Origin: Thermaceae bacterium
GTDB lineage: Bacteria > Deinococcota > Deinococci > Deinococcales > Marinithermaceae
Length of the DNA stretch: 9,363 nucleotides
Reading direction: 5' to 3'
Assembly (NCBI GenBank): GCA_015490435.1
Contig: WFXV01000033.1
Span: forward strand, 1 to 9,363
The notes beneath the pieces are model-generated. The model saw nothing but the letters and a program-made list of their open reading frames with translations, ran no database searches and was not told the DNA's origin. Both the position numbers and the translations under genes were made by a program. Shown here piece by piece: positions 170 to 6,727 of the stretch (position 1 is its first letter; each line of letters opens with the position of its first letter).

Positions 170-421
170 CTACCATTTACGGCGTTTATACGGACATGTA
201 GGCCTCTCGCACTTACGCCGACCTTCACGGATTGCAGCTATCTCCAGACCTGTGAGCAACTCACCGCAGACAGGGCAACGAGTGCGGGTGTAAGTAAAGC
301 TACGCCTGGCGACAAACAAATCTGAAGCCCGTGTTGCGGGGGCAAAGAAGACACTAAGCAGACGCCACAACCACCAGAGCACAGCGACCACCACCAGGGC
401 GGCCAGGAGGTAGCCGAGCAT
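170..421 (-). CDS. 83-aa hypothetical protein: N-terminal transmembrane helix plus a C-terminal Cys4 (zinc-ribbon-like) basic tail
   Basis: The ATG at 419-421 lies 4 nt after the Zot-like stop (TGA TGCC ATG). Residues 3-27 (GYLLAALVVVAVLWWLWRLLSVFFA) are hydrophobic. Cysteines are arranged C49-x2-C52 ... C71-x4-C76. Codon usage switches from GC3-rich to mixed after about codon 19 (near nt 365), so the C-terminal part may be a chimeric read-through. Confidence 0.45.
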   Translation of the reverse strand: MLGYLLAALVVVAVLWWLWRLLSVFFAPATRASDLFVARRSFTYTRTRCPVCGELLTGLEIAAIREGRRKCERPTCPYKRRKW

Positions 422-425
422 GGCA

Positions 426-1295
426 TCAGGCTACCGCAGGGATGGGGGTGGGTTGCGGTTGGAGTTTTTGTTTGAGGAGTTCGTGCGGGGGGACTTTCTT
501 GCGATAGGCCTCGGCGAGCTCGGCGAGGGTGAGGGCGGGGAGCCCGTCAGCGGGACCCGGGCCGGTTTTGCGCTGGGCGAGCTTTGACTCGTCCCAGGCC
601 AGGCCCAGGGCCTCGACCGCCGCCCGGCGCTTGGGATCGAGCTCCTTTTGCAGCTCGATGATCGGGGGCGGGAAGATCGCCCGGGTGTCGTAGCAGGCGG
701 CAGCCAGGGGGTCAAGCACCACCACATCGTTGCGGGCGATCCCCTCGAAGATCGAAGCGCTTTTTTTCTGCATCATGCCCAGGGACTCGTCCATGATGTG
801 GGTGTAGCGGATCACGGGTAGACGCCAACGGTGCTTCGGCCAGAGGAAGAGCTTGAGCCAGAAGGGGGCAGGCCGAGCCCACCAGACATGAGCCACCAGG
901 TCGCGGATCATGGTGTCGACGGAGGCATAGCGCTGGGTCGCCAAGAGCACGTCCACCCCCACCTTGCGGTGCTGGGACCAGAAGCCCAGGACCTCGGTGG
1001 GAAAGAGGCGATACTCCCGGGCGTTGAACCACATGTGGGCCTCGTCGAAGAGGAGAAGGCCCTCGTAGACGTTCAAGAGGCCCTTGTAGTCACGGATCTC
1101 CTCGATGCTGTCGGCGCGAAGGACGGCCTCGCGGTGGGACAGGCGGAAGCGGCGGCGCAGGTAGTGGTAGACGTTCTCCCGGATGAAGCCGAAGTTGGCG
1201 TAGACACGCCTGCCCTTGGCTAAGGCTTCGAGCCCCCGCTTGACCAGCATGTAGCTCTTGCCCGAGCCCGGAACACCCACGTAAGCCTCGATCAT
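426..1295 (-). CDS. Zot / gene-I-like filamentous-phage assembly ATPase (P-loop NTPase), 289 aa
   Basis: This is the true start inside the 595-aa track ORF: ATG at 1293-1295, preceded by GGAGGG (6-nt spacer) and 2 nt after the upstream gene's TAG. The N-terminus MIEAYVGVPGSGKSYMLV carries Walker A (1254-1277). LLLFDEAH is Walker B (1035-1058). This matches the usual Zot-family layout (PF05707). No hydrophobic TM segment is visible in the C-terminal half. Confidence 0.85.
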   Translation of the reverse strand: MIEAYVGVPGSGKSYMLVKRGLEALAKGRRVYANFGFIRENVYHYLRRRFRLSHREAVLRADSIEEIRDYKGLLNVYEGLLLFDEAHMWFNAREYRLFPTEVLGFWSQHRKVGVDVLLATQRYASVDTMIRDLVAHVWWARPAPFWLKLFLWPKHRWRLPVIRYTHIMDESLGMMQKKSASIFEGIARNDVVVLDPLAAACYDTRAIFPPPIIELQKELDPKRRAAVEALGLAWDESKLAQRKTGPGPADGLPALTLAELAEAYRKKVPPHELLKQKLQPQPTPIPAVA

Positions 1296-1297
1296 GG

Positions 1298-1702
1298 CTA
1301 CCCTCCGCCCCGAAGGAACTTGACGCCCTTGTAGAGGAAGATCGCGCCGTAGACCGCCGCCCAGACCGAAGCAGCAGTTAAAACCTCGGAGACCGGGAAG
1401 AAGGTGTTCAGGATCCCGAGGTAAGGGGCAAGCGCGTCGGTGTACCAGGTGGGCGGATCCGGCACCGGGGGCAGGAGGTGGGCAAGAAACCCGAGCAGCA
1501 CGAAGAAGAGGTCCACCGCGAGGTTCACGAGCAGAACGAGCAGGTCCAGGACCCAACCCAGGACAGCCCCGACCAGGGAGCCCAACGCCTGCCAGAGGGC
1601 GCCGAAGAGGCTCGAAAACCAGCCCAGGACGTGGCCGGCGGCCTGGGCGATCAGGTTCGCGATCATCTGCAGGAACGATGCGAGGGCACTCAAGGCAACC
1701 AC
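1298..1702 (-). CDS. gVI-like polytopic small membrane protein (putative minor coat / virion-cap protein), up to 134 aa
   Basis: The protein is very hydrophobic with several predicted TM helices (e.g. LGSLVGAVLGWVLDLLVLLVNLAVDLFFVLLGFLAHLL). It sits between the gIII-like and Zot-like genes, as gVI does in Ff. The start is uncertain: the GTG at 1702 overlaps the GGAGG, so TTG at 1693 or ATG at 1666 may be used instead. Confidence 0.65.
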   Translation of the reverse strand: MVALSALASFLQMIANLIAQAAGHVLGWFSSLFGALWQALGSLVGAVLGWVLDLLVLLVNLAVDLFFVLLGFLAHLLPPVPDPPTWYTDALAPYLGILNTFFPVSEVLTAASVWAAVYGAIFLYKGVKFLRGGG

Positions 1703-1917
1703 CTCCGGGAGAAAGAAGCCAAGGAAAGAGGAAAGCTCTTCTCAAGGCCGCCGGGCGCAAGGGTGAACCCCTTCGGGAACCATCCCCTCCGCGCGGCGCG
1801 TCGCCGGGAGGCGGGGGTCCTCCTGGCGTCCGGCCGTCCCACCCCAGGACCGCGCCGCGCTCCGGGGACGCTTCGCGCCCTTGCGCCCGTCGGCCCGAAG
1901 ACGAAAGGGAGAACTGA

Positions 1918-1938
1918 GGGCTTTCCGGGGGAAAGCCC
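1918..1938 (-). terminator. 9-bp perfect GC-rich hairpin (gggctttcc ggg ggaaagccc) 29 nt downstream of the gIII-like stop; candidate terminator or attenuator
   Basis: Stem 1918-1926 pairs with 1930-1938; the loop is 1927-1929. On the minus-strand RNA it is followed by UCAGUUCUCCCUUUCGUCUUC, which is only moderately U-rich. Confidence 0.3.
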
Positions 1939-1966
1939 TTGTTCCAGGATGCACAAGGTGCAGGAG

Positions 1967-3403
1967 CTACGCATGGCTGGCCCTCCGGGCGATCGCGAAG
2001 AGGAAGCCGACCATGAGGGAGGCGAGGACAATGCGACGGCCGGTGGAGGCGGCCCACTGCATCACGGGGTTGTTGCAGATGTCTATGTTGGCGGGAGGCA
2101 GGTCGGGGATCTCGAGCTGGAACTGCATGTCGCAGGAGCCGCCGCTCACCGATGGCGGCGCGGGAATCCACCGGGCCATGCCCACGGGGAAGCGGTCCTG
2201 CAGGGTATCCCACAGGTTTTGCAGATTCTGCTCGAAGTTCGTGCGGATCTGATCGAAGCGCCCGGTGGGGTCGGGGAGCTCGGGCGGTTCGAGCTGGGGG
2301 AGGTCCACAGGGGTGAGCGTGGGCTCGGTAGGATCGGGAATCTCGTCAGGGTTTTCCTCCTCTTCCGGCTGGCACATGTTGTTGGGATCGTTGGGGCAGG
2401 GGTCCGCCGAGTCCTTGAGGCCGTCGCCGTCGGTGTCCTGGTCCTGATCCACCCCGGGGCGGCTACTGGGGTCGGTGGGGTCCGTACCCGCGTCCCGCTC
2501 CGCAGCGTTGTCGTAGCCGTCGCCGTCGGGGTCGCCGTTCGGTAAAGGTTGGCTCCCCGCGTTCGAAGGGTCCGAACCGGTATCCCACTCGAACCAGTCG
2601 GGCCAGCCGTCGCCGTCGGTGTCCTCGTAGGGGTTGAAGAAGGGGTTATCGTACCACTGGTTGCCGGTAGGTGCAGGATCAAGCGTAAGGCCGGGAAGAG
2701 GCTCGGCGAAGGTCTGGGGGATGTTGCCCTGGGCATCCTGATCGCCGATGTAATCAGTAACCACTTGCTTCACGCCGTCGGCGGCGTCGGGGTGGGACTG
2801 GATCCAGTCGGGGAGGGGTGCACGGTCCACCCCACAGCCAGGACCGTAAGCATTTTGTGCAAACCAAGCTTCGATCTGACTATCACCCCAGTTGCCGTTT
2901 ACCACAGCAAACCCGGGGAAATATACGGTATCGCCGTCGCGCCGCGTGTAGTAAACATAGGTGCTGTTACATACATCGTAATACTTCAACTCCCATTTCA
3001 AGTGTGCGACCCTTTTGCTAATGCCGCCTGCAACACAATCCATGTAGCCGCCTGTTACGTAGTAGCAATAATCCCAAGCCGGGCTGAAACGAAACCAATC
3101 ATCGAGCGACGTGCCAGTAGACTTCTGCGCCTCGTTATAAAACCAGTCCAGCGCGGTAAGCACCAGGGAGGCGCCGATGACCAGGGCGCCGCCGTAGCGG
3201 ACGTAGCGGCCCCAGCGGACGGACTTCGTAAGTCGGTCACTGGTAAGTTGAATAATCTCAGGCCCCGCCAGGTCCTGAACAACCTCTCTGATACCAGGAA
3301 CAAACGGAGAACTGGGGGGTACAGGCATAGGCCGGTGCGCCAGGGCCGGGGAGAGCAAGGCCCCGGCCACCGCCAGGGCAACCAGTAGCCGGGGCACTCG
3401 CAT
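1967..3403 (-). CDS. gIII-like adsorption / minor coat protein with thrombospondin-type-3-like Ca-binding repeats, 478 aa
   Basis: It has a signal peptide (MRVPRLLVALAVAGALLSPALA/HRP) and a Cys-containing N-terminal globular region. Three DxDxDGxxD repeats are present (DTDGDGWPDWFE, DPDGDGYDNAAE, DTDGDGLKDSAD; nt about 2381-2629), followed by a Pro/Glu-rich linker. The C-terminal hydrophobic anchor plus basic tail (RRIVLASLMVGFLFAIARRASHA) resembles Ff pIII. The gene lies directly after the major coat gene (4-nt gap). Confidence 0.7.
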   Translation of the reverse strand: MRVPRLLVALAVAGALLSPALAHRPMPVPPSSPFVPGIREVVQDLAGPEIIQLTSDRLTKSVRWGRYVRYGGALVIGASLVLTALDWFYNEAQKSTGTSLDDWFRFSPAWDYCYYVTGGYMDCVAGGISKRVAHLKWELKYYDVCNSTYVYYTRRDGDTVYFPGFAVVNGNWGDSQIEAWFAQNAYGPGCGVDRAPLPDWIQSHPDAADGVKQVVTDYIGDQDAQGNIPQTFAEPLPGLTLDPAPTGNQWYDNPFFNPYEDTDGDGWPDWFEWDTGSDPSNAGSQPLPNGDPDGDGYDNAAERDAGTDPTDPSSRPGVDQDQDTDGDGLKDSADPCPNDPNNMCQPEEEENPDEIPDPTEPTLTPVDLPQLEPPELPDPTGRFDQIRTNFEQNLQNLWDTLQDRFPVGMARWIPAPPSVSGGSCDMQFQLEIPDLPPANIDICNNPVMQWAASTGRRIVLASLMVGFLFAIARRASHA

Positions 3404-3407
3404 GGCC

Positions 3408-3629
3408 TTACCCCTTGAGGAAGCGCCGGGCGAACTTGAAGGCGGTCATCAGGCCGATGGAGAGGGCGAGGACGCCCACGCCGGCCGCCGCGATCGCAGT
3501 CAGGTTGGTGGTGACCTTGTCGGCGATGGGCGCGGGGTCGATGTCGGGGCCGGCGGTCTGAGCGAAGGCCAGCGCCCCCAGGACCAGAGAGGTGCCAAGG
3601 ACCGAGAGCTTCTTGAGGAACTTCTTCAT
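3408..3629 (-). CDS. Inovirus major coat protein precursor (gVIII-like), 73 aa; predicted 23-aa signal peptide and 50-aa mature protein
   Basis: The preferred start is ATG at 3627-3629, 9 nt after GGAGG; the track ORF starts further upstream at 3662. The signal peptide MKKFLKKLSVLGTSLVLGALAFA is followed by the mature QTAGPDIDPAPIADKVTTNLTAIAAAGVGVLALSIGLMTAFKFARRFLKG. That mature protein has the acidic N-terminus, hydrophobic core and basic C-terminus of inovirus coat proteins. The segment AIAAAGVGVLAL.IGL...RFLKG matches my recollection of the Thermus phage PH75 coat protein. Confidence 0.85.
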   Translation of the reverse strand: MKKFLKKLSVLGTSLVLGALAFAQTAGPDIDPAPIADKVTTNLTAIAAAGVGVLALSIGLMTAFKFARRFLKG

Positions 3630-3681
3630 CTGCATCAACCTCCTTTCCTTTCTTTGCTCCACGCGCGGCCCTGGACGCGCG

Positions 3682-3774
3682 TTAGAGCCGCTTGAGTACG
3701 GCCCGCAGGCTGGCGAGGATCACGCCGCCCGCAAGGCCCCAGAGGTAGGCTCCCCAGATCGGCTGCCACTCCAT
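3682..3774 (-). CDS. 30-aa hydrophobic mini-protein (gVII/gIX-like minor coat candidate)
   Basis: Hand translation gives MEWQPIWGAYLWGLAGGVILASLRAVLKRL*. Its ATG shares one nt with the upstream ORF's TGA (TGATG at 3772-3776). The hydrophobic core plus basic C-terminus is typical of pVII/pIX-type proteins. Confidence 0.5.
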   Translation of the reverse strand: MEWQPIWGAYLWGLAGGVILASLRAVLKRL

Positions 3775-3881
3775 CACAGCCCCCGGAAGAGCACCCAGAG
3801 ATAGCGGTACGCCGCGAGGAAGGCGTAGGGAATGCTGGCGATCGAGACCACGGTGACCCAGGCGGTGCTCGGCTCGAACAT
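3774..3881 (-). CDS. 35-aa hydrophobic mini-protein (gVII/gIX-like minor coat candidate)
   Basis: Hand translation gives MFEPSTAWVTVVSIASIPYAFLAAYRYLWVLFRGL*. It has TGATG overlaps at both ends (3879-3883 and 3772-3776). Confidence 0.5.
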   Translation of the reverse strand: MFEPSTAWVTVVSIASIPYAFLAAYRYLWVLFRGL

Positions 3882-3985
3882 CACCAGTCCCCCACGGCCA
3901 GCACGCCGGTGAGCACGCCGAGGGTGAAGGCGAAGACCTTCAGCACCTCGACGACCTGCTCCACCGGGACCTCGGCGAGGGTCAT
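3881..3985 (-). CDS. 34-aa hydrophobic mini-protein
   Basis: Hand translation gives MTLAEVPVEQVVEVLKVFAFTLGVLTGVLAVGDW*. Its ATG overlaps the ssDNA-binding gene's stop (ATGA at 3982-3985), and its TGA overlaps the next ATG. Confidence 0.45.
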   Translation of the reverse strand: MTLAEVPVEQVVEVLKVFAFTLGVLTGVLAVGDW

Positions 3986-4254
3986 TTGGCCTTCGCCTCC
4001 CCCACCCACTCGCGCACGTAGTGGACGGTTCCGAGGCGAGGGGTGTTCTCCCTGAGGTAGACGCGGGCCCGGAAGGTCACCGGGTCCATCGGCTTCAGCG
4101 CCATCACGTCGGGGACGCTCTCGGGATCGAGGTTCAAGCGCAGGATGGGGCTTTCGTCATCGATGATCAGCTCGACCGTGTGGTAGACCTTGCCGTTATC
4201 GGCCGTGCGAGAGGTGTAGCGGACAAAGTTGCCTTTTACATAGACTCCGTTCAT
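3982..4254 (-). CDS. gV-like single-stranded-DNA-binding protein candidate, 90 aa
   Basis: Its size, its position (after Rep, before the coat genes) and a beta-rich sequence with aromatic and basic residues (GNFVRYTSRTADNGKVYHTVELII...FRARVYLRE) fit the small OB-fold ssDNA-binding proteins of inoviruses. A strong SD (GGAGG) lies 8 nt upstream of the ATG. The assignment is by synteny, not by a recognised motif. Confidence 0.55.
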   Translation of the reverse strand: MNGVYVKGNFVRYTSRTADNGKVYHTVELIIDDESPILRLNLDPESVPDVMALKPMDPVTFRARVYLRENTPRLGTVHYVREWVGEAKAK

Positions 4255-4379
4255 CTTCCTAACCTCCTTCGGTAGTGCGGATCGCCTGTAAGCGCGGTGC
4301 CTATCACCACGCGCAAGGCCCAGAGAAGAGCGCTGCCGTTATCGGCAAAGACGCGCCAGAAGCGGAGGAGCCGAAGCAT
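4251..4379 (-). CDS. 42-aa hypothetical small protein bridging Rep and the ssDNA-binding gene
   Basis: Hand translation gives MLRLLRFWRVFADNGSALLWALRVVIGTALTGDPHYRRRLGR*. The ATG overlaps the Rep TGA (TGATG, 4377-4381) and the TGA overlaps the next ATG (ATGA, 4251-4254). The ORF therefore exactly fills the 'intergenic' gap. Confidence 0.4.
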   Translation of the reverse strand: MLRLLRFWRVFADNGSALLWALRVVIGTALTGDPHYRRRLGR

Positions 4380-5752
4380 CACGCGGCCACCCCCTGATAG
4401 AGCGCAAGGCGCTCCACGTAGCGGTGCTCGAAGACGCCGCCGGCCAGGGCCTCGGGGAGCGCACGGGGTGAGGCGCGGAAGAGGCGGGCGAGGGTGCGCT
4501 CGAGGTACTTGCGGGCATAGGCGACGCGCTCAAGTGCCACGCCCTGCACCGCAGCGGCGGAGAGGATCACGCCCACGGCCTGGGCCAGAAGACCCTCAGC
4601 AGCGGCACGAAGGGGCCGGCGGACGCGCTTTAGGGGAACGCGGATTTGAGCCCAGGCGAGGATGACCTCGGTCCAAAGCGGATCTTCCGGCCAGCGGGTC
4701 TTTTGCTGATTTGCAGTCGGCACCCGCAAGCTGAGCCAATGCTTGGTGAGGTAATACCAAAGGGCACCAAGGTTCTCCACCAGGGTGGGCCAGTCGTGAA
4801 GGTCGAGAAGGCCCTTCTCCGGGTGCAAGAAGGCGGTGAGCACGTCCTTCCGTAGCTGGAACTCGACGCGCCAGACGACCGTGTTCTCGAGGTCCAACCC
4901 GAAGCTCGCCGCGTAATCGCGAAGGAGCTCCTTCGTCTCCGGCTTCTTGCGGGCCTCGGCGGTCTTGCTGTAGATCCGGGCGAGCAGCTTCTTGCTGCCG
5001 AACCGGAACGAGGTCCAGCGCGGGCCGCTAAGGTGCACCTGGGCCTCGGCGAGAGCGGAAGGCGCGGCAAGAAGCGCCGCTTCGGGAGTGCACTTAGCGG
5101 CCCCCGTGCTACTCATGGGGGGGCCGCCCGCGCCCGGGGCGGCGCTCACGCGCTCGCCGCCGGGCGCTTCCGCGGCATCCTCCAGGTAGGCTTGACGATC
5201 GCGGGCACGGGAGACGAAGCGGTAGAGGTCGGGGAGCTCGAAGGGGTTCTCCGGTGAGGCGAAGTCGGCGTAGAGGTCCACCCGGGTCACGCCGATGCGG
5301 ACCGGCTCGGGGTCCTCAAGACCGGCTCGGGCCATGAGCGCGATCAGCCGGGCCGTGATCGCGTCGACGATCTCGCGGATGTTGCCCCCAAGGGCGCGGA
5401 TATAACGGCCGTGGAGCTCAACGCGGATCTGGGGGTAATCATCCCGCCGTACTGAGGACTTCTCGGGGTCTGAGATGCCCAGGAAAAGGGCCTCGTCGCC
5501 AAAGACGAGACCGTAGCGGTAGTGGCGCACGCGGCGGATCTGGGCCCGCTCGAAGTCGCGGGGCTCGAGAGTGGCAGGAATACCAAGGTCGGAAACGTCC
5601 AGAAAGACCGGGCGATCGAGATCGGTTTCGTTGCGCTTGGCGAGAGCTAACTCAAGGCGCTCGTGGAAATCCGCAGGCAAACGGTAGCGCGGGCCCCAGG
5701 AGTACCAGAGGACCAACGTGTCTACGCCGTGGGTAAGCGTGAGGGTTCTCAT
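4379..5752 (-). CDS. Rolling-circle replication initiation protein, Rep_trans family (RstA / gII functional analogue), 457 aa (466 aa if the ATG at 5779 is used)
   Basis: Motifs VTRVDLYADF (5273-5287 region) and LLARIYSKTAEARKK ... VVWRVEFQLRKD (Tyr codon at 4970-4972) match the R.D...D and R.Y.K..E ... WR.E signature of PF02486-type initiators, which are used by CTXphi-like filamentous phages and pT181-type plasmids. The ATG at 5750-5752 has GAGGA 5 nt upstream; the upstream ATG at 5777-5779 has no good SD. Confidence 0.8.
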   Translation of the reverse strand: MRTLTLTHGVDTLVLWYSWGPRYRLPADFHERLELALAKRNETDLDRPVFLDVSDLGIPATLEPRDFERAQIRRVRHYRYGLVFGDEALFLGISDPEKSSVRRDDYPQIRVELHGRYIRALGGNIREIVDAITARLIALMARAGLEDPEPVRIGVTRVDLYADFASPENPFELPDLYRFVSRARDRQAYLEDAAEAPGGERVSAAPGAGGPPMSSTGAAKCTPEAALLAAPSALAEAQVHLSGPRWTSFRFGSKKLLARIYSKTAEARKKPETKELLRDYAASFGLDLENTVVWRVEFQLRKDVLTAFLHPEKGLLDLHDWPTLVENLGALWYYLTKHWLSLRVPTANQQKTRWPEDPLWTEVILAWAQIRVPLKRVRRPLRAAAEGLLAQAVGVILSAAAVQGVALERVAYARKYLERTLARLFRASPRALPEALAGGVFEHRYVERLALYQGVAA

Positions 5753-5785
5753 GATTATCCTCGGGTGTAGGGTAAGCATGAAGGG

Positions 5786-6727
5786 GTGCGCCCCCTTTGG
5801 CTCCTTTTGCTCTTCTTGCTCGCGGCCTGCGGCGCCGACCAGGGCCTTCCGGCGGAGCCGCTTCGCTTCGTGGAGGCGAACCTACCGCCCGCCTACCTGG
5901 GCGAGCCCTACCGGGTCGAGCTCGTCGCCGCCGGGGGGGTGCGGCCCTACCGGTACGAGAGCAAGGGGAAGCTCCCCGAGGGGCTCGCCTTCAAGGACGG
6001 GGTGATCGCCGGCACCCCGAAGGCCAAGGGCGAGGCCCGCTTCGAGGTGACGGTGCGGGACGCGGGGCTCTCGGCGGTGACCCGCACCTTCACCCTCCGG
6101 GTCACCGACCCGCCGCCCCCCGCCTTTCGCTTCGCCCTGCCGCCGGTGGCGGTGGCCGACCCCTTCATCGTGGTGGCCAGGCTCGAGGGCCGGCGCACCC
6201 TGGGGTTCGAGGCCCGCTTCGAGCTGGGCGCGCTCCGCCCCGACCTCAAGACGCTGAAGGTGGCCGAGGGCGCCCTCTACCTGGTCCGCTACGACGAGAA
6301 GACCGGTGTGCTCGGACTCGACCTCGCCTACAAGAAGCCCGCCTCCGGCGGCGAGGTCTTCCGCCTCACCCTCGTCCCCGAGAAGAAGGCGCTCTATAAG
6401 CGAATCCCCTACCGGGCGCGCTTCCTCGACGAGAAGGGGAAGCCCTTCGCCGCCTCTGAGCGGGTCGCTTTTGCTGAGGAGGGCTCTGGGAAGTACGCTT
6501 TTTCCGACCTGGTCCGGCTCGCCCGGAACTGGGGGAAGCGGGCGAAGAAGGACGAAGCGCTCGAGGGCGACCTGAACAAGGACGGCCGGGTGGACGAGGC
6601 CGACCTCGCCCTCCTCAAAGCCGACTACCGCTGGGCCTGGCCGGAGAAGAAGGCGAAGCCCCCTCAGTCCCAGGGCACGCCCCGGAAGAGCTCGAGCACG
6701 CCCGAGGAGAGTTCCTCCTTGCCGTAG
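5786..6727 (+). CDS. Lipoprotein with a He_PIG-type putative Ig domain and a C-terminal dockerin/EF-hand-like Ca-binding motif, 313 aa
   Basis: A GTG start gives MRPLWLLLLFLLAAC, i.e. a signal peptide with lipobox L-A-A-C. LPPAYLGEPYRVELVAAGGVRPYRYESKGKLPEGLAFKDGVIAGTPKAKGEARFEVTVRD follows the LP.G..G..Y...L.A.GG..PY......G.LP.GL.....G.I.GTP pattern of PF05345. GDLNKDGRVDEADLALLKADY resembles a dockerin type-I repeat. Codon usage is GC3-rich and host-like. Confidence 0.75.
   Translation: MRPLWLLLLFLLAACGADQGLPAEPLRFVEANLPPAYLGEPYRVELVAAGGVRPYRYESKGKLPEGLAFKDGVIAGTPKAKGEARFEVTVRDAGLSAVTRTFTLRVTDPPPPAFRFALPPVAVADPFIVVARLEGRRTLGFEARFELGALRPDLKTLKVAEGALYLVRYDEKTGVLGLDLAYKKPASGGEVFRLTLVPEKKALYKRIPYRARFLDEKGKPFAASERVAFAEEGSGKYAFSDLVRLARNWGKRAKKDEALEGDLNKDGRVDEADLALLKADYRWAWPEKKAKPPQSQGTPRKSSSTPEESSSLP

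Follow-up and report, generated by a model that had tools for sequence, protein, structure and literature searches.

The window analyzed here is a stretch of 9,363 nucleotides (contig WFXV01000033.1) from a Thermaceae bacterium. It carries a filamentous prophage in which a 478-amino-acid protein is encoded at the gene III position (open reading frame [ORF] at 1967..3403, minus strand). This protein is the pIII-type adsorption/tip protein of the prophage, and its centre is made of three calcium-loop repeats of the bacterial thrombospondin type 3 (TSP3) family followed by an acidic Pro-rich tether. We consider it probable that the repeats form a calcium-stiffened stalk that projects, together with the tether, the head of the protein.

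In Thermus phages OH3, OH16, Zuza8, and Zuza27, the protein has homologues named adsorption/attachment protein III, with which it displayed 29 to 40% identity in the searches and 39 to 41% in the alignment (tblastn E values of 1e-36 to 2e-32; coverage of 86 to 92% for Zuza8 and Zuza27). The similarity to the pIII of filamentous Thermus phages extends over the full length of the protein and places it in the Thomixvirus-type pIII family (phrog_36046; E value of 2e-61). The homologues encoded by the four isolated Thermus phages are annotated as pIII, and the homologue of phiOH3 (ORF6) was detected by mass spectrometry in purified virions (55-kDa band, nine peptides, 27% coverage; PMC4763002). As expected for pIII, the gene has gene VIII on one side and gene VI on the other and precedes the Zot/pI gene. 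The order II-V-small ORFs-VIII-III-VI-Zot is the same as in OH3, OH16, Zuza8, and Zuza27, and the order VIII-III-VI is also that of M13. The protein has the topology of a pIII, with an N-terminal signal peptide, a single C-terminal membrane anchor, and a short basic tail. The window protein and the Thermus phage pIII proteins have in common, in addition to position and full-length homology, the signal peptide, a hydrophobic helix, three DTDGDG loops, a Pro-rich tether, a Cys hairpin, and the anchor. Thus, the proposal of an inovirus adsorption protein at the gene III position, made in a preliminary description of this DNA, is borne out by synteny, topology, homologues annotated as pIII, and the phiOH3 virion data; the size of the protein is also that of a pIII. 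By analogy, the protein would bind the receptor.

The term gIII-like used in that description holds for position, topology, and role but not for sequence. Comparison with the pIII of M13 by hhalign gave probabilities of 0.2% for the whole protein and 0.65% for the C-terminal domain, the BLASTP E value was 0.36, and the Pfam family Phage_Coat_A had no match in the 478-amino-acid protein. In the absence of detectable homology with the pIII of the Ff phages (M13, fd, and f1), the term rests on position, layout, and role, together with the phiOH3 virion data. The window protein and Ff pIII share the VIII-III-VI position and the succession of a signal peptide, an N-terminal receptor part, one or more spacers, and a C-terminal domain. 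In both, a basic residue and a transmembrane (TM) anchor come after a Cys-x17-19-Cys hairpin. Alignment of the C-terminal-domain profile with the M13 C terminus placed the two cysteines, the Arg residue, and the TM helix in register, at the nonsignificant probability given above; this match is suggestive only. No counterpart of the β domains N1 and N2 of Ff pIII was detected in the window protein. Ff pIII contains two Gly/Ser-rich linkers (63 to 67% Gly in M13) and no DxDxDG motif, in contrast to the DxDxDG loops and acidic tether of the window protein.

We also considered that the protein might be a host cell-surface protein lying by chance in a phage-like region. Bacterial surface proteins commonly carry TSP3 repeats, the RefSeq name of the Oceanithermus relatives is simply 'thrombospondin type 3 repeat-containing protein', and the protein lacks homology with Ff pIII. 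This explanation is extremely improbable and is largely refuted by the fixed position of the homologues between genes VIII and VI in complete circular phage genomes of 5.7 to 6.8 kb, by the detection of the phiOH3 homologue in purified virions (PMC4763002), and by the presence of the C-terminal domain in other inovirus gene sets.

Repeats in the centre of the protein

The three DxDxDGxxD-type units and the acidic Pro-rich linker quoted in the preliminary description are all present in the translation of 1967..3403 (minus strand). Peptides DTDGDGWPDWFE, DPDGDGYDNAAE, and DTDGDGLKDSAD correspond to residues 261 to 272 (2588-2623), 291 to 302 (2498-2533), and 323 to 334 (2402-2437), respectively. 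The DNA motif reported to recur with them, GCCGTCGCCGTCGG, occurs in exactly three copies, at 2420, 2516, and 2606 of the plus strand (0.03 copies expected; none of 200 shuffles reached three). The protein contains four DxDxDG motifs, two of which overlap. When the whole protein was shuffled 20,000 times, three such motifs were never reached; the same number of shuffles restricted to the acidic region reached three in 3 cases.

The repeats belong to the bacterial TSP3 family, PF18884, which matched the protein in three stretches with a score of 36.9 bits (cutoff, 25 bits; E value of 3.3e-9). Repeat 1 spans residues 261 to 282 (DTDGDGWPDWFEWDTGSDPSNA; 2558..2623, minus strand). Repeat 2 (residues 291 to 312, DPDGDGYDNAAERDAGTDPTDP; 2468..2533, minus strand) is the best of the PF18884 stretches and covers positions 1 to 22 of the 22-position model. 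Repeat 3 (residues 323 to 344, DTDGDGLKDSADPCPNDPNNMC; 2372..2437, minus strand) has the OmpA/thrombospondin-like form DxDxDGxxDxxDxCP and contains Cys336 and Cys344, a pair kept in the clade of the window protein. The three loops fit the TSP3 pattern D.[DN].[DN]G..[DNE]..[DE], with conserved acidic residues at loop positions 9 and 12. The family named in the preliminary description, the eukaryotic TSP_3 family PF02412, scored below its cutoff (14.8 versus 25 bits; one stretch, residues 321 to 342), so that the expected TSP3 match was found in the bacterial family instead.

In a search of the family profile against solved structures, the TSP3 repeats of OmpA from Capnocytophaga gingivalis (5wtl) were the only significant match (E value of 8e-6), and repeat 3 (DTDGDGLKDSADPCP) aligned with each of the five DTDGDGIPDxxDxCP repeats of this protein. 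The likeness to PF18884 and 5wtl includes the DxDxDGxxDxxE...GTDP form of repeat 2 and the DxDxDGxxDxxDxCP form of repeat 3. The context differs, since 5wtl is a periplasmic/surface bacterial protein and the window protein is a phage tip protein with only three repeats, in which Ca2+ binding is proposed by analogy. Eukaryotic thrombospondin and COMP type 3 repeats (1yo8, 2rhp, and 3fby) resemble those of the window protein in the DxDxDG calcium-loop motif and in the Cys residue after the loop, but the window protein has neither their wire-like array of at least 13 loops nor their lectin-like C-terminal domain. TSP3 repeats of thrombospondins, COMP, and 5wtl bind Ca2+ via these same Asp positions. 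The NCBIfam search returned only TSP3-containing families below threshold (Amuc_1099 pilus-like, CglD, and MtsC). An EF-hand or calmodulin reading was rejected, since the canonical EF-hand pattern of PROSITE, PS00018, had no match in the loops and Pfam EF-hand_6 remained below its cutoff in the homologues. Matches of the family profile to calmodulin were weak (E values of 7e-4 to 0.1).

The repeats are a family trait common to every isolated filamentous phage of Thermus rather than a peculiarity of the window, as they are present in all Thermus phage homologues. The pIII proteins of OH3, OH16, Zuza8, and Zuza27 all matched PF18884 (37.6 to 60.8 bits), and the alignment with these four proteins shows no variation in the three DTDGDG loops. 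Residues D261, D263, D265, D269, E272, D291, D323, and D325 are invariant in 38 full-length homologues (27 to 74% identity), each of which contains 2 to 8 DxDxDG motifs. Conservation is highest in the TSP3 segment (2.95 bits), followed by the hydrophobic-helix segment (residues 65 to 104; 2.90 bits), and lowest in the Cys-containing head (residues 105 to 192; 0.99 bits). The W-P-D-W-x-E context of repeat 1 is invariant, and the NQWxDNPF motif in front of it is nearly so. The clade of the window protein differs from the Thermus phages in the third repeat (Cys-containing DxxDPCP type versus GTDP type), in the tether (strongly acidic and Gly-free, a form limited to this clade, versus WPGGPPPG-like), and in the head region.

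The precomputed Pfam annotation of the protein database lists PF18884 for most members of the family. In a genome scan with the TSP3 pattern, the pattern was very common, and at least two full-length relatives were among the matches listed. A pIII 46% identical to that of the window is encoded at 2982-4351 of a 4.4-kb contig (L012; JAADDH010000015.1) binned as 'Candidatus Iainarchaeum archaeon'; this contig is probably a mis-binned Thermaceae inovirus and not archaeal.

Structure prediction with AlphaFold2 (AF2) returned a full-length model comprising several domains, with a mean predicted local distance difference test (pLDDT) score of 62.7. The model was confident at residues 80 to 105, 195 to 235, and 260 to 315 (87 to 95), poor at residues 105 to 192, and below 50 in the tether (residues 347 to 377). 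Modelled alone, residues 193 to 346 had a mean pLDDT of 85.4 and a predicted template modelling score of 0.64; scores were 87 to 95 in repeat 1 and above 90 in repeat 2. The check proposed in the preliminary description, in which disorder would have spoken against a TSP3 module, thus yielded repeats that are not predicted to be disordered. The Foldseek search of the same residues against the PDB gave four matches, all to TSP3 proteins (5wtl, COMP 3fby, TSP-1 2rhp, and TSP-2 1yo8) and none of them significant (all E values >1), and may be taken as weak support at best for a TSP3 fold. The full-length model had no meaningful match in the PDB (E values >3), and the repeat module had three weak matches among the viral structures of BFVD, none of which was informative. 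Because the repeats are the most conserved segment and are modelled confidently by AF2, they are predicted to be a structured module, continuous with the helical subdomain that precedes them, and not a floppy linker. Only residues 346 to 378 look like a disordered tether in the models, and the word linker, applied in the preliminary description to both, suits these residues but not the repeats.

These data bear on an alternative in which the repeats serve as an unfolded acidic spacer of low complexity, without Ca2+ binding, and owe their Pfam match to composition only. Asp and Glu make up 26% of the region, and such a spacer would be consistent with the nonsignificant Foldseek matches and with the lack of an EF-hand PROSITE match. 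It is, however, highly unlikely in view of the rarity of at least three DxDxDG motifs in shuffles of the acidic region, the invariance of the ligand positions in homologues with an overall identity of only 27 to 40%, the pLDDT scores of 85 to 95, and PF18884 scores above the curated cutoff in all five phage proteins.

Exchange of the centre among relatives and its putative role

Representative proteins (1.84 billion) were searched with a profile of the C-terminal domain (residues 379 to 478). The search retrieved 113 cluster representatives, and the match was always located at the C terminus. Among the 90 members of at least 300 amino acids, 52 contained at least one DxDxDG motif, 42 contained at least two, and 38 contained none. 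Wide differences were seen in the centres of the members that were inspected. Nine DxDxDG loops, representing both TSP3 types, are found in the relative P0097 together with the same N-terminal helix and C-terminal anchor. A single DxDxDG loop is combined with Thr-rich NPDGS repeats in P0051, which was found in the first homologue search, and with a long Ff-like Gly/Ser-rich run (GGSGGSGGSGGDGSGG...) in P0107. DxDxDG motifs are absent from P0118, which has Gly-rich runs, from P0119, which has TTGTGGG repeats and coiled-coil repeats, and from P0084, which has a Thr-rich NPDGS spacer. The gene for P0047 belongs to a clear inovirus gene set (locus L008), in which it precedes a pVI-like gene and a Zot gene. 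P0118 is encoded by a contig of small genes with no marker-family match (L053). The gene for P0097 (L054; 6001-7923 of an ERZ25072999 contig) lies in a concatemeric assembly of an inovirus with a guanine-plus-cytosine (GC) content of 39.5% and a replication protein of another type (Rep_trans).

Since zero to nine repeats, or Gly- or Thr-rich spacers, are found beside the same C-terminal anchor, the centre of pIII behaves, as judged from these sequences, as a swappable cassette for which TSP3 repeats are one common solution. Gly-rich linkers in relatives with the same C-terminal domain support the claim of the preliminary description that the repeats occupy the place of the Gly-rich linkers of Ff pIII. 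The locus of P0097 indicates that the family reaches well beyond Thermaceae phages. The occurrence of nine repeats in an inovirus of 39.5% GC weakens the argument that the repeats are an adaptation to high temperature, and such a role is unsupported.

By analogy with TSP3 repeats of known structure, we infer that each loop would bind Ca2+ through Asp and Glu side chains and that this binding would stiffen a chain without regular secondary structure into a stalk that withstands heat and proteases. The stalk and the extended, negatively charged tether may hold the receptor-binding head off the virion tip, which would be the job of the Gly-rich linkers in Ff pIII. Several observations weigh against this reading. 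Four of them were given above, namely, the lack of detectable homology with M13 pIII, the PF02412 score, the lack of a PS00018 match, and the nonsignificant Foldseek matches. In addition, the AF2 models carry no Ca2+. Neither the phiOH3 paper (PMC4763002) nor the Zuza paper (PMC11437467) reports Ca2+-dependence experiments. Finally, the conservation of the TSP3 segment exceeds the need of a passive spacer and hints at an additional specific role.

Such a role would be fulfilled if the TSP3 module were a functional domain and not a spacer, acting as a Ca2+-dependent switch, as a secondary-receptor or entry-factor site similar to Ff N1, or as a Ca2+-triggered folding unit similar to RTX repeats. 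Ff N1 binds TolA, and RTX repeats are unfolded in the cell envelope and fold only after extrusion. The module is the most conserved part of a protein whose head is hypervariable, the sequences before and around repeat 1 are near-invariant and invariant, respectively, and AF2 predicts an ordered module that continues the helical subdomain, all of which argue for a functional domain. We nevertheless consider it unlikely, since the copy number varies from zero to nine, Gly- and Thr-rich spacers replace the module beside the same C-terminal domain, no partner is known, and Ca2+ dependence does not appear in the two phage papers.

A calcium-stiffened stalk is therefore the reading that we retain. 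A variant that we regard as quite unlikely is that the three loops are a Ca2+-gated switch or extracellular folding trigger. The loops would be unfolded in the envelope and would stiffen into a stalk upon extrusion into spring water rich in Ca2+. Entry would then be triggered in part by Ca2+ being lost or gained at the cell surface. If true, the Ca2+-gated tip would be the calcium-controlled counterpart of the pilus-triggered unlocking of N1 and N2 in Ff pIII, and infection by the whole inovirus branch would depend on Ca2+.

Other segments of the protein and the prophage locus

The segments of the protein are given here with their coordinates on the minus strand. The hydropathy profile has peaks at residues 3 to 21 and 454 to 476. 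A Sec-type signal peptide is formed by residues 1 to 23 (MRVPRLLVALAVAGALLSPALA; 3335..3403; Kyte-Doolittle values up to 1.87), with cleavage before the following H deduced from the AxA rule, and a hydrophobic N-terminal stretch ending at A22 is kept in the phage homologues. The mature N-terminal part contains the conserved hydrophobic helix (residues 71 to 91; 3131..3193; hydropathy of 1.47), which is predicted with pLDDT scores of up to 93. This helix (GGALVIGASLVLTALDWFYNE) is TM-like and preceded by a basic RWGRYVRYGG stretch. Similar helices are present in the distant members P0051, P0084, P0097, and P0119, and Ff pIII has no counterpart there. The helix may be buried in the core of the protein or may serve for insertion into membranes.

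The hypervariable, presumably disulfide-containing head (residues 105 to 192; 2828..3091) has Cys residues at positions 113, 123, 145, and 190, varies in length from 21 to 138 residues in the family, and is modelled with low pLDDT. The divergence between the attachment proteins of the Zuza phages was located in the head part (PMC11437467). Judging from this sequence variation, the head is probably the region that determines receptor specificity. It is followed by the helical subdomain and its PGxxLDPxPxxNQWxDNPF motif (residues 193 to 254; 2642..2827), which lead into repeat 1 and contain invariant and near-invariant columns (2.70 bits). In the model of residues 193 to 346, helices were located at model residues 5 to 11 and 13 to 32, with pLDDT scores of 66 to 91.

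The acidic Pro-rich tether (PEEEENPDEIPDPTEPTLTPVDLPQLEPPELPD, residues 346 to 378; 2270..2368) is composed of 36% Asp and Glu and 30% Pro, with no Gly and no Lys or Arg. Across the family, its length ranges from 23 to 133 residues and its composition varies. It holds a PVxLP motif (residues 365 to 369; 2297-2311) in which P365, V366, L368, and P369 are invariant in the alignment of the window protein with its four Thermus phage homologues. The invariance of this motif inside a variable tether suggests that part of the 'linker' may make a specific contact. The C-terminal domain (2069..2269) comprises, according to the secondary structure of the AF2 model, a long helix (residues 379 to 404), an RFPFG motif, and a disulfide hairpin (Cys424-Cys443), the two cysteines of which are invariant among the homologues. 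The TM anchor (core at residues 454 to 476; hydropathy of 1.5 to 1.7; helix at residues 446 to 477) and the short basic tail complete the protein (1970..2068).

The genes between positions 426 and 5779 of the window (minus strand), identified from ORFs, PHROG, and Pfam, make up a complete inovirus module for structure and replication. The prophage is a Thomixvirus-like (Paulinoviridae) filamentous phage in a Thermaceae genome. A gene for a replication endonuclease (gene II-like; 4379..5779, minus strand; phrog_33635, E value of 8e-47; syntenic in OH3 and Zuza8) forms the end of the prophage beside host DNA. It is followed by a 90-amino-acid ORF at the gene V position (3982-4254, minus strand). 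Gene VIII, encoding the major coat protein (3408..3662, minus strand), matched Phage_Coat_B with 24.5 bits (cutoff, 23.5 bits) and PHROG head/major coat families. Downstream from the pIII gene lies a gene VI-like gene for a minor coat protein (1298..1702, minus strand; phrog_37052, E value of 1.7e-9), which is placed as gene VI in OH3 and Zuza8. The Zot/pI-type assembly ATPase gene (426..1295, minus strand) matched Pfam Zot with 53.5 bits and phrog_20922 with an E value of 7e-95. A 595-amino-acid ORF extending from Zot through VI into III (426-2213, minus strand) was rejected as an artefact of high GC content; the real Zot protein has about 289 residues, as called in an identical contig.

Between genes V and VIII, three successive small hydrophobic ORFs (42, 36, and 31 amino acids) are present at 3682-4009 (minus strand) and were also called by the gene caller in the identical contig L005. 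The same interval of phiOH3 and Zuza8 contains only two annotated ORFs (VII and IX) followed by a noncoding gap. An 83-amino-acid ORF just downstream of Zot (170-421, minus strand) encodes an N-terminal TM helix and a zinc-ribbon-like CxxC...CxxxxC motif and has no family match. In contig L007, one of the records that encode an identical pIII, the gene for the IS110 transposase used by these phages for integration is located slightly past the left end of the window.

The right-hand 3.6 kb of the window looks like host DNA, with a GC content of 71.7% versus 64.9% for the phage part. It contains genes for an He_PIG lipoprotein, a ferredoxin, an SPW protein, and a TetR protein and an ORF that runs off the right end. 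The lipoprotein-like ORF (5786-6727, plus strand), which combines an He_PIG Ig domain with a dockerin-type Ca2+ loop (DLNKDGRVDEAD), abuts the replication gene of the prophage. It is kept in L005, the other contig reaching that far, and may be host DNA or phage cargo. A protein 100% identical to the 478-amino-acid protein is encoded by the metagenome-assembled genome (MAG) GCA_027048655.1 and by two metagenome contigs. Among named relatives, the nearest belong to Oceanithermus and to a Thermaceae MAG. No phage record matched the complete window in a Megablast search, and no tRNA or tmRNA gene and no Rfam family were found in the window.

Implications for filamentous phages

The preliminary description knew of no account of this architecture for inovirus adsorption proteins. 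The phage papers are indeed silent on it. For ORF6, the phiOH3 paper names only an FtsK PRK10263 'domain' (PMC4763002), a call that probably stems from the Pro-rich tract, and the Zuza paper mentions neither thrombospondin nor calcium (PMC11437467). In the literature searched, no paper pairs thrombospondin with inoviruses, and only unrelated papers pair thrombospondin type 3 with bacteriophage. In contrast, all isolated filamentous phages of Thermus share the architecture, which Pfam and RefSeq already flag. Public databases thus hold the phage family, the repeat family, and the domain match, and the window protein is one more member.

Nearly all that is known of filamentous phage attachment and entry comes from the Ff phages and CTXphi, in which the domains of pIII are joined by Gly-rich or similar flexible linkers. 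The present analysis extends this picture to a whole inovirus branch in which bacterial TSP3 calcium-loop repeats make up the middle of pIII. To this branch belong all cultured filamentous phages of Thermus, numerous prophages of Thermaceae, and at least one lineage of low GC content. For thermophilic phage display, this suggests a design of heat-stable, calcium-stiffened linkers. The new point is comparative: the spacers of pIII behave as interchangeable cassettes, with TSP3 repeats as one common solution. Relatives with the same C-terminal anchor that have Gly-rich, Thr-rich, or coiled-coil spacers instead may thus provide a natural series for the length, stiffness, and calcium dependence of the pIII spacer.

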